Positions 5,893 through 48,882 of a DNA stretch of 64,000 nucleotides are shown piece after piece. The DNA is from a virus. Location: positions 1 to 64,000 of IMG/VR virus record IMGVR_UViG_3300045988_121434. One strand, written 5' to 3'. Position 1 is the stretch's first letter; each line of letters starts with the position of its first letter. Under the pieces are notes generated by a model. That model worked only from the letters and a program-made list of their open reading frames with translations. It was not told the origin of the DNA and did not search any database. The position numbers and the translations under genes were made by a program.

Positions 5893-6168
5893 ATGAAATT
5901 ACAAGACTCTACAGAAAAAATAATAGATAGAAGAAAGGTGTATTACGTAACTATCTATAATAGCAGACACATGATTGTTGCATTCTTAGGCAGTAGTTTG
6001 CATTACGTTTCATCAAGAACTGATGCTGCTTTGTTTGATACGAAAGAGGATGCAGAGGAATTGATGAAAAATGCGGAATCAAACGGAATCTGTAACACGA
6101 TACCAGATTTCGCAAAAATGACGGTTTCATCTGATACGCAAGTCTTACTCCAACATTGGCATTTCTAG
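5893..6168 (+). CDS. hypothetical protein
   Basis: 91-aa ORF preceded by the leader motif. Confidence 0.55.
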   Translation: MKLQDSTEKIIDRRKVYYVTIYNSRHMIVAFLGSSLHYVSSRTDAALFDTKEDAEELMKNAESNGICNTIPDFAKMTVSSDTQVLLQHWHF

Positions 6169-6245: not shown

Positions 6246-6470
6246 ATGGAAAAAGACCAAATAATTTATGACCAGCGTAAGGCCATGGGTGAGAGCATCC
6301 GCGCGATGCGCACCGCCCAGGGTTGGGAGCAGGAGCAGCTCGCTCAGATCGCGGGCATCACCACCGCAAATGTTCGCAGCGTGGAAGCCGGTAAGTATGC
6401 CGTGAATATCGACGTGCTGAACAAGATAGCGGGCGCACTGGGCGCAGAGCTGAGAATGATTGAAAAGTAA
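6246..6470 (+). CDS. XRE-family helix-turn-helix protein
   Basis: ESIRAMRTAQGWEQEQLAQIAGITTANVRSVEAGKYAVNIDVLNKIAGALG fits the HTH_3 pattern; preceded by the leader motif. Confidence 0.75.
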   Translation: MEKDQIIYDQRKAMGESIRAMRTAQGWEQEQLAQIAGITTANVRSVEAGKYAVNIDVLNKIAGALGAELRMIEK

Positions 6471-34676: not shown

Positions 34677-34731
34677 ACTACCTACAGGCTAAAGACCTAT
34701 GGGTTTTACGGCGCTCAATATAAATGATAAT

Positions 34732-35136
34732 ATGAGAACAATTAAATTTCGTGGCAAAGACATCTTTACTGATGCTTGGCGATATGGTGACTTGGTTCAC
34801 AACCAGAAAGTAACAGCAACTGGCTTAGAGCCTCGTACAATGGTTGGTGGGTATGAGGTTGACCCAGAGACTGTTGGCAATAACACTGGACTGAAAGACA
34901 AGAACGGCAAGGAGATATATGACGGTGATATACTCGCCCACAATGGCAAGGTTATCGGTCATGTTGTTGACGGTGTGCGTGGTTACTGCTTCGATGTGGT
35001 GTATGCCAACCCTGTAAGCGAAAGCACATGGTCGTTATATGGAGTCGTTTTTTACGATTATAAAGGCGATGTAGAGATTGTAGGCTCCATCCACGATAAG
35101 GAATGGCAGGAGAAGTTGAATTTACCATCTGTATAG
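34732..35136 (+). CDS. YopX-family protein
   Basis: MRTIKFRGK.., NTGLKDKNGKEIYDGDIL, VEIVGSIHDKEW fit the YopX pattern; track ORF from 34699. Confidence 0.7.
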   Translation: MRTIKFRGKDIFTDAWRYGDLVHNQKVTATGLEPRTMVGGYEVDPETVGNNTGLKDKNGKEIYDGDILAHNGKVIGHVVDGVRGYCFDVVYANPVSESTWSLYGVVFYDYKGDVEIVGSIHDKEWQEKLNLPSV

Positions 35137-35963: not shown

Positions 35964-36098
35964 ATGACTGACATTAAGATTTCGGTGCATCCGTTTGGCC
36001 ATAAGCTCGAATGGCGAGGATGGGGGGGTAACTTCTCGCCTGCTCTACGAGCCACCGACTACAAATGCCCTCACTGTATAATGATTGAATATGACTAA
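35964..36098 (+). CDS. TRD-like mini-ORF 1 (44 aa)
   Basis: ..WRGWGGNFSPALRATDYKCPHCIMIEYD*; G7 at 36022-28 is in frame; stop overlaps the next start (ATGACTAA). Confidence 0.6.
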   Translation: MTDIKISVHPFGHKLEWRGWGGNFSPALRATDYKCPHCIMIEYD

Positions 36099-36225
36099 GC
36101 AACACCCATTCGATGATTTTCATCAGCGCATTCATTGGGACGGCAACTCCATCGGAACCGTTACCCAGCAATGGGGCAATCCTGCGCCGAGGCACGGATG
36201 GCGAATAATGACAGAATATGATTAA
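36091..36225 (+). CDS. TRD-like mini-ORF 2 (44 aa)
   Basis: ..RIHWDGNSIGTVTQQWGNPAPRHGWRIMTEYD*; ATGATTAA overlap. Confidence 0.55.
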   Translation: MTKQHPFDDFHQRIHWDGNSIGTVTQQWGNPAPRHGWRIMTEYD

Positions 36226-36547
36226 CCCTCACACGCCCCGCTACAAGCGCGGCACCATCACCAAGGACGGCAAGCTATACGGACGCTATCCCGACGGTTC
36301 GCTCTACCGCATCTACTCCACCTCTGACCGACCCTTCCTTCAGATTGTTGACCGCAAGGGCGAGACGTTCCTTCGCATACGCCAAGCCACCGAGCAGGGC
36401 TATACCGACTGCCCTTGCCCTGGTGCTGCCGACCTCAGCTATTCCTCCTCGGCTCTAAGGCGCAGCAGGACGGTTGGGGGGGGGGGTAAGCTGGTGAACG
36501 CTCTGACCGCAGCAAGCGGAGGGGCGTGCGTGTTTGTTGAATTATGA
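36218..36547 (+). CDS. TRD-like mini-ORF 3 (109 aa)
   Basis: ..RQATEQGYTDCPCPGAADLSYSSSALRRSRTVGGGGKLVNALTAASGGACVFVEL*; G11 at 36476-86 is in frame. Confidence 0.7.
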   Translation: MINPHTPRYKRGTITKDGKLYGRYPDGSLYRIYSTSDRPFLQIVDRKGETFLRIRQATEQGYTDCPCPGAADLSYSSSALRRSRTVGGGGKLVNALTAASGGACVFVEL

Positions 36548-36554
36548 CTTGAAT

Positions 36555-36731
36555 ATGCTTAGAGCAAAGGCAATATCAATAATGGTGAAAAAGGTGGAGC
36601 AGACCATGGTGTTTCAGAACATGCAAGCCAAAGGTCTGATAACGCCTCGCTCGCTTGATGGCGAATGTTTTACTCTTACGTCTGCAATGGGATTAGGGGG
36701 GGCAAACGCCTGTAATAGTAAAGGTATATGA
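36555..36731 (+). CDS. TRD-like mini-ORF 4; family tail out of frame after a G7 tract
   Basis: ..DGECFTLTSAMGLGGANACNSKGI*; with one G fewer at 36696-36702 it reads ..GLGGQTPVIVKVYD* ending at 36735. Confidence 0.5.
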   Translation: MLRAKAISIMVKKVEQTMVFQNMQAKGLITPRSLDGECFTLTSAMGLGGANACNSKGI

Positions 36732-36859
36732 CTAAATACGACCTCTACCAATATCCTCGTGGCTACAACGACGGAGGTAGATTAGGCACTGACGTTTGCC
36801 CGACCTTGACAATCAATTCGTGGCAGCAAAATGTATTTCTGATTGAAGAATATGAATAA
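36728..36859 (+). CDS. TRD-like mini-ORF 5 (43 aa)
   Basis: MTKYDLYQYPRGYNDGGRLGTDVCPTLTINSWQQNVFLIEEYE*; ATGAATAA overlap. Confidence 0.6.
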   Translation: MTKYDLYQYPRGYNDGGRLGTDVCPTLTINSWQQNVFLIEEYE

Positions 36860-36871
36860 AGCAAAGACAAT

Positions 36872-38200
36872 ATGATCACAAAACTCAATTTCACCGACCG
36901 CACCATCAAGAGCTATGCTATCCGTAAGCTCACGCCAAAGGAGTGTTTCCGCTTGATGGGCGTTCGCGACAACGTAATCGGCACGATGCAGAGCAGCAAT
37001 GCCCAAGCAGCCGAACGTTTGCCCGACTGGAAGGGCAAGGGCAAACCCGAAGACATGGCTATATCTGCCTCACAGCAGTACAAGCAAGCCGGAAACTCAA
37101 TCGTGGTGGACGTGTTGGCCCACATCTACGAGCAACTTTTCTATCCCGCACCGCCCAAGCCCCGCAAGCAGGAACAGCTCACGCTCTTCGCCGACCTTGA
37201 TGACTCGCTGCCCGCCATGCCACCAACAGCCGGAGAACGTGGTAAGGAAAATCTTTTCCTCACCACGTTCTCCGGCTACGACTCGCAGCTCATGGCAGCC
37301 GACGTGCTATGCGAGTGGCATCCCGACTTCCGATGGACATGCGTAGGATGGAGCGACATCGACAAATACGCCTGTCAGATGCACAACCTCGTCTTCCCTC
37401 AGTTTGCCGACTGCGCCCTTGGCGACATCACCAAGATTGACTGGCATGAGGTGAAACGCTCGCTCCATGGGCGCGAGGTTGACATCTTCACCTATTCCTC
37501 GCCTTGCCAGGACATCAGCCAAGCCGGAAAGCAAATGGGACTGAAAGAGGGCAGCGACACACGAAGCGCCCTGCTTTGGCGAGTGGCAGATGCCGTGGAG
37601 GTGTTGCGCCCGAAATATCTCTTGCAGGAGAACGTGGCGGCACTGGTAAGCTCGAAGTTCATGCCCGACTTTCAGAAGTGGCTCGACAAACTCTCCTCGC
37701 TCGGCTATGTGAGCCGTTGGGCGCGACTCAACGCAAAGAACTATGGTGTGCCACAAAACCGCGATCGTGTGTTCTGCATTTCCATGCGCAAAGACGTAGC
37801 CTTCGACTATCAGTTTCCCGAACCCTTCGAGCTGCGCACCCGACTGGAGGACGTGTTGGAAAATGAGGTAGCCGACCGTTATTTCCTAAAAGACGATGCC
37901 GTGAGCAAGTTTCTCAAGGCTAACGACTCCGACAACGCCCTATTCATGCAGTTCGACCTGCCACCGACACACGAGGCAGCGATGTTCCTCAAGACCGTGC
38001 TTCAGATATTCATGGAGCGTCACGACGGATGGGACGAAGGCATTGAGTGGAACGAGAAGGAGCTGAGCTATCGTCGCCCAACCATCGCCCGTCTCTACGA
38101 AAAGTTCAAGGAGAACCCAAAGAAACTGGACGTGGAATATTGGCGCGGCTTTTACAAGATGTTTAAGGAGAATATGGAGAGGAATAAGGATGCGAACTGA
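36872..38200 (+). CDS. DNA (cytosine-5)-methyltransferase core, circularly permuted (motifs IX-X precede I-VIII)
   Basis: IX IRKLTPKECFRLMGV, X YKQAGNSIVVDVL, then I LTTFSGYDS, IV YSSPCQDISQAGK, VI LLQENV, VIII YGVPQNRDRVFCI, then the start of a TRD (ADRYFLKDDAVSKFL). Confidence 0.9.
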   Translation: MITKLNFTDRTIKSYAIRKLTPKECFRLMGVRDNVIGTMQSSNAQAAERLPDWKGKGKPEDMAISASQQYKQAGNSIVVDVLAHIYEQLFYPAPPKPRKQEQLTLFADLDDSLPAMPPTAGERGKENLFLTTFSGYDSQLMAADVLCEWHPDFRWTCVGWSDIDKYACQMHNLVFPQFADCALGDITKIDWHEVKRSLHGREVDIFTYSSPCQDISQAGKQMGLKEGSDTRSALLWRVADAVEVLRPKYLLQENVAALVSSKFMPDFQKWLDKLSSLGYVSRWARLNAKNYGVPQNRDRVFCISMRKDVAFDYQFPEPFELRTRLEDVLENEVADRYFLKDDAVSKFLKANDSDNALFMQFDLPPTHEAAMFLKTVLQIFMERHDGWDEGIEWNEKELSYRRPTIARLYEKFKENPKKLDVEYWRGFYKMFKENMERNKDAN

Positions 38201-38381
38201 CAACCCACCCGACCGTGTAATCCATATCATAGCTGATATGATTATGGGTGGCAGGTTGCTCACCTGCCCTGCCTCGATGTTCAGTGCAGAACGCTGCAAC
38301 GGAGCCTTTCACGGCATAGCAATAACCATCATGTCGCGCACCGATTGCAGCGACGTGTTCTTTGTAGCAGTAGAATTATGA
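38190..38381 (+). CDS. TRD-like mini-ORF 6 (63 aa)
   Basis: ..GAFHGIAITIMSRTDCSDVFFVAVEL*; start overlaps the core stop, end is an ATGA overlap. Confidence 0.5.
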   Translation: MRTDNPPDRVIHIIADMIMGGRLLTCPASMFSAERCNGAFHGIAITIMSRTDCSDVFFVAVEL

Positions 38382-38526
38382 AGAAAACCAACCCGTGTCA
38401 CGCAATACAAAATGGGGGGGTACGATTGCGCCTGCAATTACTTCCCACTATTTTAAGGCTGGTGTGCGAGACTTCCTCTTTGCCCTTGCCATACCACATT
38501 GTTGTTTGATAGTAGAATATGAATAA
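38378..38526 (+). CDS. TRD-like mini-ORF 7, frame broken at a G7 tract
   Basis: As sequenced it stops at 38509 (MKKTNPCHAIQNGGVRLRLQ..). With one extra G at 38414-20 it reads ..NGGGTIAPAITSHYFKAGVRDFLFALAIPHCCLIVEYE* ending at 38526. Confidence 0.5.
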
Positions 38527-38671
38527 CAACCCTCGCCCTATCATCCTCGGCTCTTACAGTCCCTCGCAGAACGGCATCATCGTGTCACCACACGGCATAG
38601 CCTTGTGCATAGCCGGGGGAGGTAAGGGTCACGATGTGGATAAACCGAAAATACTGATAGAGTATGACTGA
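38519..38671 (+). CDS. TRD-like mini-ORF 8 (50 aa)
   Basis: ..SQNGIIVSPHGIALCIAGGGKGHDVDKPKILIEYD*; ATGACTGA overlap. Confidence 0.6.
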   Translation: MNNNPRPIILGSYSPSQNGIIVSPHGIALCIAGGGKGHDVDKPKILIEYD

Positions 38672-38843
38672 CAAGTATTACATTGGCTGGGTACGCAGCG
38701 GCAAGGACGGCAAGGGCCTCGTAAAGAGCAGACCGCGCAAGCAGATAGCCAATGCCGTGACGACAATGGTCGGAAGAGGTATTGCCGACCCTCGCGACGG
38801 ACTCGGCAACACCACACCGCATATAGTATATGAATTTGAGTAA
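38664..38843 (+). CDS. TRD-like mini-ORF 9 (59 aa)
   Basis: ..RPRKQIANAVTTMVGRGIADPRDGLGNTTPHIVYEFE*. Confidence 0.55.
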   Translation: MTDKYYIGWVRSGKDGKGLVKSRPRKQIANAVTTMVGRGIADPRDGLGNTTPHIVYEFE

Positions 38844-38860
38844 CCCATAAAACAAAAAAA

Positions 38861-39241
38861 ATGGAAAAAGACAAAAACGTAGAGATAGGCCGTGCTCTCG
38901 CCAATTTTGATATGGCCTGTCGCAATTTGGTCAACCTTGTCAACGACCAACTCTTCGAGACCTCCCGCTCACCCTACTGGGTAGCCGACGAGGTAGGAGG
39001 CATCTGCGACTTCGGCGATACCGACTTCCTCACGCCCGAAGAAATGGTGCTCATTCTCGAACACGGCGTCAGCTACGACGACTATGTAGAGTGGCGCGAA
39101 GCCAACATCAAGTATGGCGACACCAAAGGCTACATCAAACTCAAGTCATGGCTCCGCGGATGCCGACACGACCGTGTGGAGGGTGCAAATACCAAGACAA
39201 ACTGCATCGCCCCAGTCCGTGGCCGTGGAGTAATTCGATAA
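38861..39241 (+). CDS. hypothetical protein inserted in the TRD array
   Basis: 126-aa ORF, not TRD-like except the C-terminal ..CIAPVRGRG, which resembles the start of mini-ORF 10. Confidence 0.55.
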   Translation: MEKDKNVEIGRALANFDMACRNLVNLVNDQLFETSRSPYWVADEVGGICDFGDTDFLTPEEMVLILEHGVSYDDYVEWREANIKYGDTKGYIKLKSWLRGCRHDRVEGANTKTNCIAPVRGRGVIR

Positions 39242-39266
39242 CAACAGTAACAAAAGACAACCTCCT

Positions 39267-39440
39267 ATGCTACACTTTCGCATAGCAGCCTTTCGAGGCC
39301 GTGACCCCGACAATCCGTCCGACCGCAAGCATCCCTCCTGCGGTCGTTTCCGTCAGCGCATGGAGATAAATGCGTTGGGTACGACCAACACGCTTACGTC
39401 AGTAGGCAAGGATAATATGGCATATATAGAGTATGAATAA
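39267..39440 (+). CDS. TRD-like mini-ORF 10 (57 aa)
   Basis: ..IAAFRGRDPDNPSDRK..RQRMEINALGTTNTLTSVGKDNMAYIEYE*, the classic Dcm-type TRD pattern. Confidence 0.7.
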   Translation: MLHFRIAAFRGRDPDNPSDRKHPSCGRFRQRMEINALGTTNTLTSVGKDNMAYIEYE

Positions 39441-39582
39441 TCAAACCCCATTCGTGCAACGCCTCTCTCGCCTCTGCCCACGTCGGGGGTACTCCACCGC
39501 CCTGTCCGCACGCTACGACGGATGGGCAGGGCTCTACGACGAGCACGGACAGCACACCATTGTATTGATAGAGTATGAATAA
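39433..39582 (+). CDS. TRD-like mini-ORF 11 (49 aa)
   Basis: ..CPRRGYSTALSARYDGWAGLYDEHGQHTIVLIEYE*. Confidence 0.6.
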   Translation: MNNQTPFVQRLSRLCPRRGYSTALSARYDGWAGLYDEHGQHTIVLIEYE

Positions 39583-39715
39583 GTACATACAAAATTGTCC
39601 GTCAGGTATCTGTTGCGTTCTGACCTCTCATTACGCAAGAGAAGGATGGGCGAACATAGCAAGCAATACAACATCACAATGCAAAGCACCCACAATATTG
39701 ATAGAGTATGAATAA
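39575..39715 (+). CDS. TRD-like mini-ORF 12 (46 aa)
   Basis: ..GICCVLTSHYAREGWANIASNTTSQCKAPTILIEYE*. Confidence 0.6.
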   Translation: MNKYIQNCPSGICCVLTSHYAREGWANIASNTTSQCKAPTILIEYE

Positions 39716-40202
39716 AAATGTAACAAACCCCATAAAAACAACAGAGACAATGAAACCAGAAGAAAACAACCGTATGGAGGCACTTGCCTACATCATAGCC
39801 GACCTAAAGGCAGAGAACATAGAGCTGGTGCAGCGTGTGCATCAGCTTGTGGAGGATTACAACGACGTAGCACGTCAGTTGCGTGGAATGGAGAAGCGTA
39901 AGGACGAAGACCAGTCAAGGCAGACGCTCGGCGAAATGATGCAGATGCGCGACCATTGCGACAAACTGGAGGTTGAAAACAACAATTTGAAGACGTGCTT
40001 GATAGCAGTCAGCTCGTTTCTGCGAGACAAAAATCTGTATATGGCTAATGGCACATTATGTTCTTATGGGTCTGGCAATCCAGAAGTATGTCCTGAGTAC
40101 TGCAAAAAATGTAACTCCTACCTAAGTACTTTAAAGGATGTTGGTGTGGTTTGCAGCAGAAGACTTGCAGAAGCTTCCGTAATTTTTGCGAAGAGTAAAT
40201 GA
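39708..40202 (+). CDS. coiled-coil/Cys-rich hypothetical protein inserted in the TRD array
   Basis: 164-aa ORF; starts on an ATGAATAA junction and ends on an ATGA overlap. Confidence 0.55.
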   Translation: MNKNVTNPIKTTETMKPEENNRMEALAYIIADLKAENIELVQRVHQLVEDYNDVARQLRGMEKRKDEDQSRQTLGEMMQMRDHCDKLEVENNNLKTCLIAVSSFLRDKNLYMANGTLCSYGSGNPEVCPEYCKKCNSYLSTLKDVGVVCSRRLAEASVIFAKSK

Positions 40203-40360
40203 CACCAACAAAAACCCTCGTAGTCGGCATGATGCAGACGCCACCCTATGACCGCATGTTTGAGCAGAGCCGCCGCGTGTACTCCGCTCAGGGAATATCG
40301 CCCACGCTGCATACACAAGGGGGGGGTGATAGAGAGATTAAGGTATTGGTGGAGCTGTAA
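40199..40360 (+). CDS. TRD-like mini-ORF 13 (53 aa)
   Basis: ..YDRMFEQSRRVYSAQGISPTLHTQGGGDREIKVLVEL*; G8 at 40319-26 is in frame. Confidence 0.7.
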   Translation: MTPTKTLVVGMMQTPPYDRMFEQSRRVYSAQGISPTLHTQGGGDREIKVLVEL

Positions 40361-40398: not shown

Positions 40399-40476
40399 CA
40401 CATATCACTGAACGAATGAGACTAACATCGTTTTCATTTGTTTCGTCTGGTGACAAACAAAAACAACATTTCATCT

Positions 40477-40830
40477 ATGATACAACATCAGCATTGGGAA
40501 GACTCCACTCACATACTCATTACCGACGAGCAGCATCATGGCAGCATACAGGTGTTCATCCCCAAGCGCACCGAAGACAAGCCCTTGGATGGCGAGGCTG
40601 ACGCTCTCGTCTATTCGCTGTGGGTGGGCGAACGGCACCGTGGCCGTGGGGTGGCAAAACTCCTGATGGAGACAGCCGAAAGGGAACTGAAGCGCTGCGG
40701 CATAGCGACCGTCGCTATATCGTGGGATGGACGCGACTCTCCCCAATGGGTGTTGCAATGGTATGAAAGGTTGGGCTACGAAGGAAAAGCGTTCGACTAC
40801 CGCTGCTGCACGCTTCTTAAACGGTTGTAG
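40477..40830 (+). CDS. GNAT-family N-acetyltransferase (paralog of the C-terminal half of 33451-34110)
   Basis: SLWVGERHRGRGVAKLLMETAERELKRCGIATVAISW; parallels ALYVDESCRKRGIGKGLLEQAERLAHDHHCRVVALEW. Confidence 0.7.
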   Translation: MIQHQHWEDSTHILITDEQHHGSIQVFIPKRTEDKPLDGEADALVYSLWVGERHRGRGVAKLLMETAERELKRCGIATVAISWDGRDSPQWVLQWYERLGYEGKAFDYRCCTLLKRL

Positions 40831-40998: not shown

Positions 40999-42174
40999 AT
41001 GAGCGACTTAAAGATTTTTGCAAAGACCATTGAACCTGAAGCCCAGGAGCAAGTAAGGCAGATGGCAGAGAGCGAGGCTTACCGCGACTGTAAGATTCGC
41101 ATTATGCCCGATTGCCATGCCGGAAAGGAATGCACCGTAGGCACCGTGATTGAGACCCGCGGCAAAGTGGTGCCCAACACCGTGGGCGTTGACATCGGTT
41201 GCGGTATGCTCGTGTGGGATTTAGGCTTTGCCAACATTGATATGGAGATTCTCGACCGTATCATCAACGACAACATTCCAAGCGGATTCAATGTGCATGA
41301 GAAGCGTTTGTCGTCAGAGATGGTTTCCCTTATGCACAATGAAATATGGTGTTTTTTGCCTCCGTGGAAGCAATATTTTGACCTCGACTATGTACTGCGT
41401 TCGCTCGGCACCCTTGGCGGTGGCAGCCACTTTATTGAGGTTGACGTGGACGACGAAGGACGCAAGTATCTTGTAGTACATTCGGGTAGCCGCAATTTAG
41501 GCGTAAAGATATGCCGACATTTTCAGCAGTTGGCATCAAGACAATGCAACAACAGTGAGGAACGTGGACGTATCATTTCCGAACTGAAAGCTCAGGGCAG
41601 ACAGAGCGAGATAAACGATGCGCTGCGCCGGTTGAAACCCGTTTCTAAAGACATGGCCTACATTAGCGGTACCACGCTTGGCGATTACTATGATGCCATG
41701 CGCTTGTGTCAGCATTATGCCGACTTGAACCGTTTTCTTATGGCGCAAACCATAATCAAAGGTCTTGAACTAAAGTCTACAGGTCGTGTGTTCACCACCA
41801 TGCACAACTACATCGACACCTTCGGCATTATCCGCAAGGGAGCTGTGAGCGCAAAGAAGGGCGAGCCTCTGATTATCCCTCTGAACATGCGCGACGGTTC
41901 GCTGCTGTGTACTGGCAAGGGCAACAACGACTGGCTTCAGTCGGCTCCCCACGGCGCAGGCAGACTAATGTCGCGCTCGGCTGCCAAGAAGCAGCTCAGC
42001 ATGGACGAATACCGCCAACAGATGCACGACATCTACTCTACATCGGTATGCGAGGCCACAATCGACGAAGCTCCAATGGCGTATAAGTCGGCAGAGGAAA
42101 TAGAAGCGTTGATAGGCGACACCGTGAACATCGTGAAGCGCATTAAGCCGATATATAACTTTAAGGCGAAGTAA
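40999..42174 (+). CDS. rtcB: RtcB-family RNA 3'-phosphate ligase
   Basis: MPDCHAGKECTVG, GGGSHFIEVD, VHSGSRNLG, TMHNY, APHGAGRLMSR (conserved RtcB metal/GMP-His motifs). Confidence 0.85.
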   Translation: MSDLKIFAKTIEPEAQEQVRQMAESEAYRDCKIRIMPDCHAGKECTVGTVIETRGKVVPNTVGVDIGCGMLVWDLGFANIDMEILDRIINDNIPSGFNVHEKRLSSEMVSLMHNEIWCFLPPWKQYFDLDYVLRSLGTLGGGSHFIEVDVDDEGRKYLVVHSGSRNLGVKICRHFQQLASRQCNNSEERGRIISELKAQGRQSEINDALRRLKPVSKDMAYISGTTLGDYYDAMRLCQHYADLNRFLMAQTIIKGLELKSTGRVFTTMHNYIDTFGIIRKGAVSAKKGEPLIIPLNMRDGSLLCTGKGNNDWLQSAPHGAGRLMSRSAAKKQLSMDEYRQQMHDIYSTSVCEATIDEAPMAYKSAEEIEALIGDTVNIVKRIKPIYNFKAK

Positions 42175-45649: not shown

Positions 45650-46423
45650 TTAAAATAGAGAGAGTTGTGCCTGCTCCAACTTGATGCGCTTGCAAGCCTT
45701 GTTGTAATACTCCTTATTGAGCTCGAAGCCGATGAAATTGCGTTTCTCTTTTATACAAGCAATGGCAGTGGTGCCGCTGCCCATGCAGTTGTCTAATATG
45801 GTGTCACCCTCGTTGGAATAGGTACGGATGAGGTACTGAATAAGAGCGACTGGCTTTTGTGTGGGGTGGAAGGTGTCGGCTGAATGTTCCTTATCGAAGC
45901 AGATAATGCTCTTTGGAAATTTTTCGTCTGATACGATAGTAGGCACTTCTTTATGGTCGCCGTAACACCCCCGCTTCAAACTATGAGAACCATCACCCTT
46001 GTGATGGTTTCGTTTATGTGGCGCACATTTTACCATCTGAGGGTTGTAGATAGGTTGCTTCCGATAGAATACTGCAATATCCTCATGCGAGCGCAGAGGC
46101 ATCTTGTTGACATTCAAAAAGCCCGTTGCTCTGTTTTTGCTCCAAATAAGATTATATTTCCAAAGTTTCGGCTGCGACACCATAAGTTGTGCAGTGAACA
46201 TACCTTGACAGAAAAGAATAATCGCTGCATTGTTTTTTGCTATGCGTAGATATTCTTTCCATAATGACTCAAGCGGAATAATGCTATCCCATTTCCCTCC
46301 TTCACTCTGTTTGTTGAGAACACCATACGGCAAATCGCACACGATGCAATCCACGCTCCCGTCTGGAATCCTTTTCATCCCTTCCAGACAGTCTTCGTTA
46401 TATATCTTATTCAGTTCTACCAT
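45650..46423 (-). CDS. beta-class N4/N6 DNA methyltransferase (N6_N4_Mtase type)
   Basis: Motif IV CDLPYG precedes the SAM motif HPTQKPVALIQYLI..DTILDNCMGSGTTAIAC. Confidence 0.85.
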   Translation of the reverse strand: MVELNKIYNEDCLEGMKRIPDGSVDCIVCDLPYGVLNKQSEGGKWDSIIPLESLWKEYLRIAKNNAAIILFCQGMFTAQLMVSQPKLWKYNLIWSKNRATGFLNVNKMPLRSHEDIAVFYRKQPIYNPQMVKCAPHKRNHHKGDGSHSLKRGCYGDHKEVPTIVSDEKFPKSIICFDKEHSADTFHPTQKPVALIQYLIRTYSNEGDTILDNCMGSGTTAIACIKEKRNFIGFELNKEYYNKACKRIKLEQAQLSLF

Positions 46424-47383: not shown

Positions 47384-47803
47384 TTACATTTTGAATTGTT
47401 TTTTCAAGAAAGTGTTGCTTTTAATAAGCTCTATCATTTCCTCCTCGGAGTGTATTCCTTCCCAAAATACTTCAGTATGCGACCCACGCCTTTCATCATC
47501 TACGGAGAACGGCACGGCATAGTTGGTATATACAACACCGTGATGTTTTATCAAGTGACGACCTGGATTCTTGTAGATGTTATTGATCCACGTCTCGTTG
47601 TCACATTCAGTCCATATTTTACATTCTTTGTGGGTAAGATTTTTGTCGATACCCATAGGATAGTGACCTGCCTTGCCGTTACTTTTGTTCCGAAATAAAT
47701 GATCTTTGCCATATCGTGATTGTTTTATAATTCGCCAAAGTCCAGTTTCATCTGTTGGAATTTCTCGGCATACCATTGTTTGTATGATTTGCCCGAAATC
47801 CAC
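47384..47803 (-). CDS. hypothetical protein (start uncertain)
   Basis: 139-aa ORF; overlaps the 3' end of the upstream gene by 79 nt. Confidence 0.45.
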   Translation of the reverse strand: MDFGQIIQTMVCREIPTDETGLWRIIKQSRYGKDHLFRNKSNGKAGHYPMGIDKNLTHKECKIWTECDNETWINNIYKNPGRHLIKHHGVVYTNYAVPFSVDDERRGSHTEVFWEGIHSEEEMIELIKSNTFLKKQFKM

Positions 47804-48882
47804 CAGTCGTAGATATTTTCCGCTATTTCGTTTTCTTGCTCCTCCGTCAAGCGGTCAGAAGAGGAGCTGGACGAAAACCCTGGGGCTGCGATATTCCGTA
47901 CACCTCTGTTTTGTCTCCAATGTTCCGGGTCTGGATGTTTGATGTAGCCGCCTGTGTCCTGAGCAATCCTCTGACGTTTCTGAGAGGCATCCAGTCCTTG
48001 CGGATGTTCCACCAAATATATTCTCTTTTGAATACCCCCCCCGTTTCGGATAGCCTTAATAGCCTTTATCCAGTTGCGCTTGATATGCGGATAGCGTTCA
48101 TTCTCGATGCGTTTCTGCTTTGCAGACGACATAGGGCAGCCGATGCAGCCGATGCGATGCCATCCCTCGTCGTAGAGCGAGCAATGCGGAACCTTCACCA
48201 CATCGTTAAGAAACTCCCATACGTCCTTTTCCGTCCAATAAATGATGGGTGAAATAAGCAGACTCTCTTTGCCGTGGATGCAGCTTAATGTCTGTTCTTC
48301 ATCAGCATTAGTGATATTCACGCCTTGCTCCTTGGATTTACGGCGAGCACGTTTAGCCTTCAGCTCCTGACGATATTCGTCCAGACCGTCAAGATTGCCA
48401 CTAAACTTTCGGTTATTTATTTCTACCTCATTTCGTTTGGCTCGGCGTGCGCTCTCTGCCTTGCGGATGCCGATTAGCGTTACCTTGCCAGCACCTGCCG
48501 TTTCCTTATATTCAGCGCAACACCAGCGCACACGCATAGTGGGCAGAATCTGCTTTTCTACGGCAATCTGAAAGATAGATTTGCCAGGCTTTAGCAGTTC
48601 CACCTCGGGATAGTTCTTCTTAACGAAACGTATCACTTCGGGTGGATCAACGCTCGTAAGATTCATGTGACCGCGAAATTTCACCCCCGCCAACTGAGTC
48701 ATGTGGAAAAGAGCTTGAGAATCCTTTCCACCACTAAACGCCAAGTAATATCCATTCTCGGCATCATAGTTGAGGGCTATCTTCTCTGCTTTTTGCAGCA
48801 GCTCCACCGAGTGAAGCATCTTTTTTCGCAGTCCTTCCGAAGCTCGCTCCAATGCTTCGGCAAGCGTAATGTCTATATTCAT
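47725..48882 (-). CDS. PAPS-reductase-fold PP-loop protein (DndC/IbrA-like)
   Basis: YYLAFSGGKDSQALFHM (SGGKDS PP-loop) and Cys cluster IGCIGCPMSS; G8 tract (C8 on plus strand, 48035-42) is in frame. Confidence 0.75.
   Translation of the reverse strand: MNIDITLAEALERASEGLRKKMLHSVELLQKAEKIALNYDAENGYYLAFSGGKDSQALFHMTQLAGVKFRGHMNLTSVDPPEVIRFVKKNYPEVELLKPGKSIFQIAVEKQILPTMRVRWCCAEYKETAGAGKVTLIGIRKAESARRAKRNEVEINNRKFSGNLDGLDEYRQELKAKRARRKSKEQGVNITNADEEQTLSCIHGKESLLISPIIYWTEKDVWEFLNDVVKVPHCSLYDEGWHRIGCIGCPMSSAKQKRIENERYPHIKRNWIKAIKAIRNGGGIQKRIYLVEHPQGLDASQKRQRIAQDTGGYIKHPDPEHWRQNRGVRNIAAPGFSSSSSSDRLTEEQENEIAENIYDWWISGKSYKQWYAEKFQQMKLDFGEL

Follow-up and report, generated by a model that had tools for sequence, protein, structure and literature searches.

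A 64,000-nucleotide (nt) stretch of DNA from a gut phage, positions 1 to 64,000 of IMG/VR record IMGVR_UViG_3300045988_121434, was analysed and is referred to below as the window. It carries a C5-cytosine DNA methyltransferase (C5-MTase) gene at 36872-38200 on the plus strand. The gene is flanked by 13 short plus-strand open reading frames (ORFs) of 43-109 amino acids (aa), which together span 35964-40360. The locus is probably a multispecific C5-MTase taken apart into subunits, in which the target-recognition domains (TRDs) are encoded as separate mini-genes around a single catalytic core. The original prediction had placed five short ORFs upstream and eight downstream of a 442-aa core ORF; all were present at those coordinates, and the core was, as had been proposed, the only C5-MTase in the window with catalytic motifs. 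Two ORFs probably start elsewhere than had been stated, #2 at ATG 36091 and #4 at ATG 36555. The original interpretation of one core served by separately encoded TRDs was supported by sequence, homology and comparative genomics, with action in trans as the proposed mode. Eleven of the mini-ORFs are intact and two (#4 and #7) are out of frame at G7 tracts. The circular permutation of the core, the poly-G tracts and the fused relatives had been overlooked.

The core matched Pfam family PF00145 (E=2e-51) and contains all catalytic signatures: FSGYDS (motif I), SPCQDIS (IV), QENV (VI), QNRDR (VIII), RKLTPKE (IX) and AGNSIV (X). Motifs IX-X occupy residues 15-90, ahead of motifs I-VIII, which occupy 130-330. 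Sequence matches to M.MpeI, M.HhaI and M.HaeIII in the PDB were obtained in two pieces, in permuted order. With phmmer, core residues 190-329 aligned to M.MpeI 113-255 (motifs IV-VIII) and core residues 15-49 to M.MpeI 333-367 (motif IX). Because these segments are swapped relative to M.MpeI, the order of the core was read as IX-X-I-VIII. The polypeptide begins approximately 15 residues before motif IX. After motif VIII it runs past a conserved variable-region start (LEDVLE..YFL) into a helical C-terminal tail. No TRD module was found in the core, and no hidden Markov model (HMM) of a mini-ORF family matched inside the polypeptide. An AlphaFold2 (AF2) model gave an overall predicted local distance difference test score (pLDDT) of 75, with fair to high values for the catalytic domain and for a beta-hairpin at the N-terminus (residues 2-15), and low values for the C-terminal tail. 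The best Foldseek matches of this model were M.MpeI, M.HhaI and M.HaeIII. By these comparisons, the core is a complete catalytic scaffold, circularly permuted and without a target-recognising module.

More than 7,900 core homologues were found in metagenomic protein sets, and two related proteins carried the source labels Prevotella and Alloprevotella. No phage core in GenBank was more than 60% identical to that of the window, and megablast of the whole region against GenBank gave no match. One relative, P0246 (329 aa), matched core residues 129-442 only (motifs I-VIII plus the C-terminal tail) and had no motifs IX-X; from this protein, the core may be split further in some genomes.

The short ORFs share a characteristic ending. 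Of 22 small plus-strand ORFs in the region, 11 finish in a hydrophobic-E-[YFL]-[ED] or V-E-L tail (three or four hydrophobic residues, then E-Y/F-E/D or V-E-L), compared with 1/452 elsewhere in the window on both strands (P ~4e-24). Nearly all junctions follow the consensus GA(A/G)TATGAnTAA or GAATTATGA, so that each following ORF has its ATG within the last codons of the one before it. The two mini-ORFs that lack a proper tail are the frameshifted #4 and #7.

Related loci were collected by a core scan of IMG/VR viral contigs. A total of 142 stretches matched and 80 loci were kept, mostly from human-gut contigs of up to ~110 kb, which with the window made 81 loci. Tail-bearing small ORFs numbered 493 on the coding strand and 5 on the opposite strand, and were grouped into ~18 recurrent families. 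There were 1-12 per genome (median 6), placing the window near the top, and none was further from the core start than -2 or +4 kb. The stop of one ORF and the ATG of the next overlapped by 8 or 4 nt in 320 of ~480 cases, at GAATATGAnTAA. Pooled ratios of nonsynonymous to synonymous substitution rates (dN/dS) were 0.10-0.35 in all 17 families tested, indicating purifying selection. The values for families represented in the window were 0.18 (#1, family 8), 0.10 (#2, family 10), 0.11 (#3, family 3), 0.27 (#5, family 4), 0.31 (#6, family 1), 0.23 (#8, family 0), 0.23 (#9, family 9) and 0.15 (#11, family 2). Family 0 was present in 55 loci and family 2 in 46. A profile of #3 was also searched against a set of 5.8 billion proteins. 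The 120 clusters listed were all free-standing proteins of ~86-154 aa, with most close to 105 aa; they bore the name 'hypothetical' and had no Pfam domain. Since every listed match was a free-standing small protein, this search was not taken as proof of TRD homology. By these measures the mini-ORFs are real genes, each separate and opening with an ATG of its own, on which purifying selection acts.

All 13 mini-ORFs had originally been described as TRD-like. Family HMMs were searched against 150 representative core relatives at an independent E-value (i-E) cut-off of 1e-3. Every localisable domain match (106/106) fell between motifs VIII and IX of canonical relatives, where ~58 were expected from region length. 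Three further matches were at the N-terminus of permuted relatives, and there were zero elsewhere. The TRD-like description was borne out for 12 mini-ORFs, ten by family HMM and two (#4 and #7) weakly by single-sequence search; #11 gave no match in either.

The individual matches were as follows. The HMM for #1 matched the variable region of P0267, P0314 and P0378 (best i-E 1e-13), and that for #2 matched P0289 residues 404-438, directly before motif IX (i-E 1e-10). TRD regions of P0299, P0349, P0386 and P0378 were matched by #3 (i-E down to 8.5e-14), and those of P0261, P0289 and others by #5 (i-E 8e-12). The HMM for #6 matched the N-terminal fused TRD of permuted P0297 and P0366 (i-E 2e-8) as well as canonical TRD regions. 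Matches of #8 were in TRD regions (P0314 at 3.8e-6), and those of #9 were at the P0272 N-terminus and P0314 residues 612-641. The best HMM match of #10 had an i-E of 1e-14; by tblastn, #10 was 57-61% identical (E ~3e-8) to the C5-MTase TRD of Streptococcus phages Javan179, Javan141 and others, and of Dulem virus 39. Family 6 (#12) matched variable regions of P0349, P0307 and P0314, the last with three tandem copies, and family 5 (#13) gave 39 domain matches in TRD regions. In addition, #13 matched M.Phi3TI residues 300-328, within the variable region, at 29 bits, together with SPbeta mtbP and phage H2. Among the weaker cases, the corrected frame of #4 matched ...TLTSAMGQGGGQTPMLT in the P0301 TRD, and its GGQTPVIV segment resembles GGGQTP of canonical TRDs; weak matches of #7 were in TRD regions. 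PDB sequence searches with #13 and #3 gave no meaningful match, the short length of the peptides and the strong divergence of TRDs being beyond such searches, and tblastn of #3 and #1 against GenBank phages gave no match. With #11 excepted, the mini-ORFs are homologues of C5-MTase TRD modules.

The same modules occur fused in relatives. The variable region was longer than 250 aa in 27 of 81 relatives and reached 549 aa. Tandem modules in these proteins matched different window ORFs: #13/#8, #12 three times, #1 and #9 in P0314; #13, #12 and #3 in P0349; #13, #10 and #3 in P0386; and #6, #5 and #2 in P0289. The window array can therefore be regarded as the 'exploded' counterpart of a fused multispecific enzyme. 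Other relatives (P0252, P0297, P0366, P0395 and P0422) are permuted with an N-terminal TRD in the chain, in the order TRD-IX-X-I-VIII, and P0252 has two TRD modules followed by IX-X-I-VIII. At the P0297 and P0366 junctions, ...ISLE and ...VTLE are followed by a linker and MIAQIN.... The P0395 junction reads ...AILIEYE-TNDNI-MIAQIN..., and the window reads ...IEEYE-(stop)-SKDN-MITKLN..., with a sense codon in the former where the latter has a stop. The P0395 junction nearly equals that between #5 and the core and settles the topology: the TRD C-terminus belongs beside the core N-terminus. This TRD-before-core order agrees with canonical enzymes, in which the TRD precedes motif IX. Fused and split forms appear to interconvert.

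A second clade has a core ~45% identical to that of the first. Most of its members are TRD-less and start MIAQIN..., and its loci L082-L084 contain arrays of tail-bearing mini-ORFs rich in G tracts. Since the same arrays are found in this clade, the split architecture is not a peculiarity of one lineage. A beta-strand and helix after FLKxN(E/D) are conserved in both TRD-less clades. Two variant arrangements were observed. In L084, a tail-bearing TRD-like mini-ORF (6248-6430) lies in another frame inside the IX-X insertion of the core (P0278). In L081 (Streptococcus phage Javan179, MK448694.1 12603-13881), the C5-MTase is annotated as two coding sequences in an AquI-like split, the first with motifs I-VIII and one TRD, ending ...AVIELIE before the stop, and the second with a #10-type TRD and motifs IX-X.

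The proposed mechanism is as follows. Each mini-gene would encode one TRD module of 43-109 aa, comprising the T-L/V-T...G-G loop region and a final hydrophobic strand ending E-Y-E/D or V-E-L. The mini-genes and core would be co-transcribed, and their translation coupled via the overlapping stop and start codons. Bacteroidales-type hosts make little use of Shine-Dalgarno sequences, and translational coupling would suit them. In a scan for sigma-70 promoters and intrinsic terminators, which did not cover Bacteroidales promoters, counts were not above those in shuffled sequence. As the core has no TRD of its own, an association of chains would be needed. One TRD peptide at a time would dock on the core and rebuild the small domain non-covalently, with the peptide C-terminus by the core N-terminal hairpin before motif IX and its N-terminus by the C-terminal TRD stub of the core. 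Candidate docking elements are the hydrophobic-E tail, the core N-terminal hairpin, and the strand and helix after FLKxN(E/D). Each core-peptide complex would methylate its own short motif, and phage DNA would thereby be pre-protected against many host restriction enzymes. The poly-G tracts probably turn single modules off and on, leaving the catalytic gene untouched. C5-MTases are known to tolerate circular permutation and splits in the variable region (PMC5944983).

Five points weigh against this mechanism. No TRD similarity was found for #11 by family HMM or single-sequence search. When #3 was modelled alone with AF2, the TRD part had a pLDDT below 50, though this fits folding on binding. 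In engineered M.MpeI and M.SssI, an isolated TRD fragment combined with a permuted IX-X-I-VIII fragment was inactive (PMC5944983). That result and the low-confidence #3 model suggest that the natural system may need extra docking elements. The Y-D/E or L-stop part of the tail may simply reflect the ATG of the following gene that is embedded there, and not docking. Finally, the numbers of out-of-frame tract copies and broken cores given in the next paragraphs indicate that some or all of the system is often off.

Coding-strand poly-G tracts of 7-11 G occur at five positions in the window array (Table 1). Across the arrays, runs of at least 6 comprised 205 of coding-strand G and 23 of C, compared with a total of 35 for G and C together across 404 kb of flanking sequence. 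The tracts encode a conserved Gly-Gly(-Gly) in the TRD mini-genes, and mini-ORFs began 41.6% of their Gly-Gly pairs with the codon GGG, where long ORFs did so for 6.5%. Of the 205 G runs, 52 were in intact tail ORFs and 92 in ORFs restored to a full-length tail by a 1-G change; 92 of 144 tract-bearing mini-ORFs (~64%) in the 81 loci were thus out of frame by exactly 1 G. Where the 20-nt flanks were identical, genomes differed in tract length at 10 of the 11 G tracts whose modal length was at least 7. A tracts of at least 7 varied too (5/12 sites), so a share of the variation may be sequencing error. Identical tract lengths were found in two independent samples (L082 and L083), and three flanking genes were broken in only 1/21, 1/15 and 1/31 loci, with a fourth (orf167) broken in 7/27. 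These two observations argue against a pure artefact.

Broken cores were found in 9/81 loci, three by poly-C frameshift and six by nonsense mutation. In L030, L061 and L065 the core is frameshifted in the poly-C tract ACCCCCCC (~6050-6090, locus coordinates), which encodes Thr-Pro-Pro of motif IX, and this tract may be an on/off switch for the whole enzyme. The cores of L024, L038, L051, L054, L055 and L075 each have a single in-frame nonsense codon, TAA for E, Q or Y and TAG/TGA for W, which suggests that the methyltransferase is sometimes counter-selected.

The distribution of the poly-G tracts suggests that each module could be switched on and off independently; single modules, and occasionally the core, would be frequently switched or lost. 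In a split enzyme, a frameshift in one module would no longer destroy motifs IX-X. It is possible, if doubtful, that the enzyme is split so that each module switches independently, in which case a phage population would form a combinatorial library of up to ~2^13 methylation patterns.

Other explanations of the locus were weighed against a disassembled multispecific enzyme. The array might be the decaying wreck of a fused multispecific methyltransferase, with non-functional mini-ORFs and a core that is inactive or non-specific. The many copies frameshifted at G tracts, the nonsense and frameshift cores, the TRD remnant at 39215-39285 and the failure of an engineered isolated TRD to complement would all fit. 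A wreck is nevertheless unlikely given the purifying selection in every family tested, a start/stop architecture conserved in two clades with cores just ~45% identical, the strand asymmetry of 493 to 5, and the wide occurrence of the genes, with >7,900 related cores and the 105-aa peptide found free-standing in hundreds of clusters.

The TRD peptides might also be made without programming the core, acting as DNA-binding decoys or competitors, as modulators of host C5-MTases or as regulators of the core. No positive support for this was found, and it is permitted by the low-confidence fold of the lone peptide and the hypothetical nature of the core-peptide complex. The complexes of M.HhaI and M.HaeIII form the basis for expecting that a TRD loop needs the catalytic domain, and a 45-aa loop is unlikely to bind DNA specifically without one. 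Moreover, the genes of the peptides stay close to the core (-2 to +4 kb) in the 81 loci and also in the second clade, and in relatives the peptides are fused to the topologically correct end of the core. Such roles were considered quite unlikely.

It is very unlikely that the mini-ORFs are joined in expression (by stop readthrough, programmed frameshifting or RNA cut-and-ligate by RtcB) to give a conventional fused enzyme. Successive ORFs are in differing frames, each with its own ATG overlapping the prior stop, and all three stop codons are in use. No slippery heptamer was seen at the junctions on reading the sequence, and no conservation past coding constraint was found at junctions or downstream of the stop. 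The case for joining is that #5 shares the frame of the core, with just one TAA and 12 nt in between, that natural fused relatives have an almost identical junction, and that RtcB is encoded nearby (40999-42174). However, the ORF directly upstream of the core is in frame in just 7/16 loci, RtcB lies within 6 kb in just 23/80 loci, there is no suppressor tRNA, and the in-frame core stops are ordinary nonsense mutations of five different codons.

Three specific candidates of this kind were set aside. Readthrough fusion of the upstream ORF to the core was rejected on the 7/16 in-frame count. An alternative genetic code or stop recoding was rejected, as no tRNAs were found and, in six related cores, differing stop codons take the place of E, Q, W, Y and W. 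Splicing of module mRNA by RtcB was unsupported, the junctions having no conserved element and the RtcB linkage being inconsistent.

That the short ORFs are homopolymer or indel sequencing artefacts in one or two long genes is hardly credible: long homopolymers do vary between assemblies (G>=7 at 10/11 sites, A>=7 at 5/12) and a 1-G change restores #4 and #7, but the ORF boundaries are at conserved stop-start overlaps and not at homopolymers, the same boundaries recur in 81 independent contigs and thousands of database proteins, tract lengths are equal in independent samples, and most flanking genes are seldom broken.

The proposed split enzyme was compared with known systems. The multispecific C5-MTases of Bacillus phages (M.SPRI, M.Phi3TI, M.Rho11sI, M.H2I and SPbeta MtbP) likewise combine one framework with several short independent TRDs, are phage-borne and presumably serve anti-restriction. 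They share homologous modules with the window, #13 being homologous to M.Phi3TI 300-328, and the closest canonical relatives of the window core are fused multi-TRD enzymes. In the Bacillus-phage enzymes, TRDs, usually 2-4, are fused in tandem between motifs VIII and IX, whereas in the window each module has its own gene, with up to 13 per genome, and the core is permuted.

Type H C5-MTases (M.BssHII, M.Alw26I, M2.Eco31I, M.Esp3I and M2.BsaI) share the permuted order, with motifs IX-X preceding I-VIII as in M.BssHII (PMC5944983). They differ in having an N-terminal TRD in the chain and one specificity; the window core starts without a TRD. In the heteromeric enzymes M.AquI alpha/beta and M.EcoHK31I alpha/beta, separately encoded polypeptides, with the break within or close to the variable region, together restore activity (PMC5944983, PMC3404938). 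The window system would similarly act through separately encoded chains. In those enzymes the conserved motifs of a single enzyme are divided between two chains, whereas in the window all ten motifs are in one 442-aa chain and the recognition module alone is detached and multiplied.

The likeness to Type I HsdS, including phase-variable hsdS, is in logic alone: interchangeable specificity subunits programme a common methyltransferase, and switching diversifies the methylome. The proteins are unrelated, the chemistry is N6-methyladenine and switching is by recombination or inversion, not by homopolymers. Phasevarions (modA and modH of Haemophilus, Neisseria and Helicobacter) resemble the array in that homopolymer tracts within the ORF set the frame by their length. 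In these bacterial Type III mod genes, switching affects the entire enzyme; the window tracts are in single phage TRD mini-genes and, occasionally in related loci, a poly-C tract is in core motif IX.

An arrangement of one core with about 13 separate TRDs is not known to have been described, and none was found in the full-text literature searched. Relatives are named in databases just 'hypothetical protein' or 'cytosine methyltransferase'. The layout is undescribed in that literature and is widespread.

The features of the array and its neighbourhood are collected in Table 1. Removal of one G from #4 gives an ORF ending ...GGQTPVIVKVYD before the stop, with the canonical tail and junction, on our own reading of the sequence. 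In #7, ATG 38378 and the TRD part are in different frames, and an intact counterpart is present in locus L030 (MKKINPCHAIQNGGGTIAPAITSHYF...). The seven-codon ORF at 36852-36875 is a possible candidate for a termination-reinitiation relay between #5 and the core. The remnant at 39215-39285 points to deletion and recombination inside the array. The 164-aa coiled-coil ORF (39708-40202) recurs in 44 related loci.

Table 1. Predicted features of the mini-gene array and neighbouring genes, in window coordinates.
Feature	Position	Strand	Description
YopX-family protein	34699-35136	+	Flanks array
Mini-TRD #1	35964-36098	+	44 aa, ...SPALRATDYKCPHCIMIEYD; G7 tract 36022-36028
Mini-TRD #2	36091-36225	+	44 aa; ATG overlaps #1 stop by 8 nt
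Mini-TRD #3	36218-36547	+	109 aa, large TRD type ...ATEQGYTDCP..SALRRSRTVGGGG..LTAAS..VFVEL; G11 tract 36476-36486
Mini-TRD #4	36555-36731	+	58 aa as read; frame lost after G7 tract 36696-36702
Mini-TRD #5	36728-36859	+	43 aa, ...CPTLTINSWQQNVFLIEEYE; in frame with core, one TAA and 12 nt between
Bridging ORF MNKAKTI	36852-36875	+	7 codons; ATG inside #5 end, TGA overlaps core ATG
TRD-less permuted C5-MTase core	36872-38200	+	442 aa
Mini-TRD #6	38190-38381	+	63 aa, ...GIAITIMSRTD..FFVAVEL; start overlaps core stop
Mini-TRD #7	38378-38526	+	...TIAPAITSHYFKAG..CLIVEYE; out of frame at G7 tract 38414-38420
Mini-TRD #8	38519-38671	+	50 aa, ...GIALCIAGGGKGHDVDKPKILIEYD
Mini-TRD #9	38664-38843	+	59 aa, ...IANAVTTMVGRG..TTPHIVYEFE
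Non-TRD ORF	38861-39241	+	126 aa, inserted in array; no significant Pfam match
TRD remnant, degraded, #10 type	39215-39285	+	...IAPVRGRG at end of 126-aa ORF; NSITTVTKDNLL in another frame
Mini-TRD #10	39267-39440	+	57 aa, AAFRGRDPDNPSDR..QRMEIN..TNTLTSVGKDNMAYIEYE
Mini-ORF #11	39433-39582	+	49 aa, ...YSTALSARYDGWAG..IVLIEYE; same tail and junction
Mini-TRD #12	39575-39715	+	46 aa, ...CCVLTSHYAREGW..ILIEYE
Non-TRD coiled-coil ORF	39708-40202	+	164 aa, within array; weak coiled-coil-type matches
Mini-TRD #13	40199-40360	+	53 aa, ...RRVYSAQGISPTLHTQGGGDREIKVLVEL; G8 tract 40319-40326
GNAT acetyltransferase	40438-40830	+	Flanks array
RtcB RNA ligase	40999-42174	+	Flanks array; within 6 kb of core in 23/80 related loci
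N6/N4 amino-methylase, unrelated DNA methyltransferase	45650-46423	-	PF01555, E=7e-32
PAPS-reductase-like protein	47725-48882	-	Flanks array

If the peptides programme the core in trans, the locus would represent a new quaternary architecture for a textbook enzyme family, with specificity subunits that are, for the first time in a C5-MTase, detachable and exchangeable. The locus would then be a natural solution to what engineers tried and failed to achieve with M.MpeI and M.SssI. How tandem TRDs take turns at one active site is a question that could be approached with 45-aa modules; the PDB searches of this analysis yielded no multispecific enzyme structure. The modules would also provide a compact toolbox for programmable writing of 5-methylcytosine. 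A function would be given to hundreds of clusters of 'hypothetical' 40-110-aa proteins without a Pfam domain.

The poly-G tracts raise the possibility of phase-variable viral methylomes. Independent switching, if true, would make the locus the first 'phasevarion' of a phage and its enzyme the first C5-MTase to have exchangeable specificity subunits like HsdS. Such switching would offer a hedge between methylation-sensitive (Type II and similar) and methylation-dependent (Type IV) restriction in Prevotella-like gut hosts. Related cores number in the thousands in human-gut metagenomes, and the layout would account for the ability of abundant gut phages to withstand restriction in Bacteroidales, whose repertoires are dense and variable.

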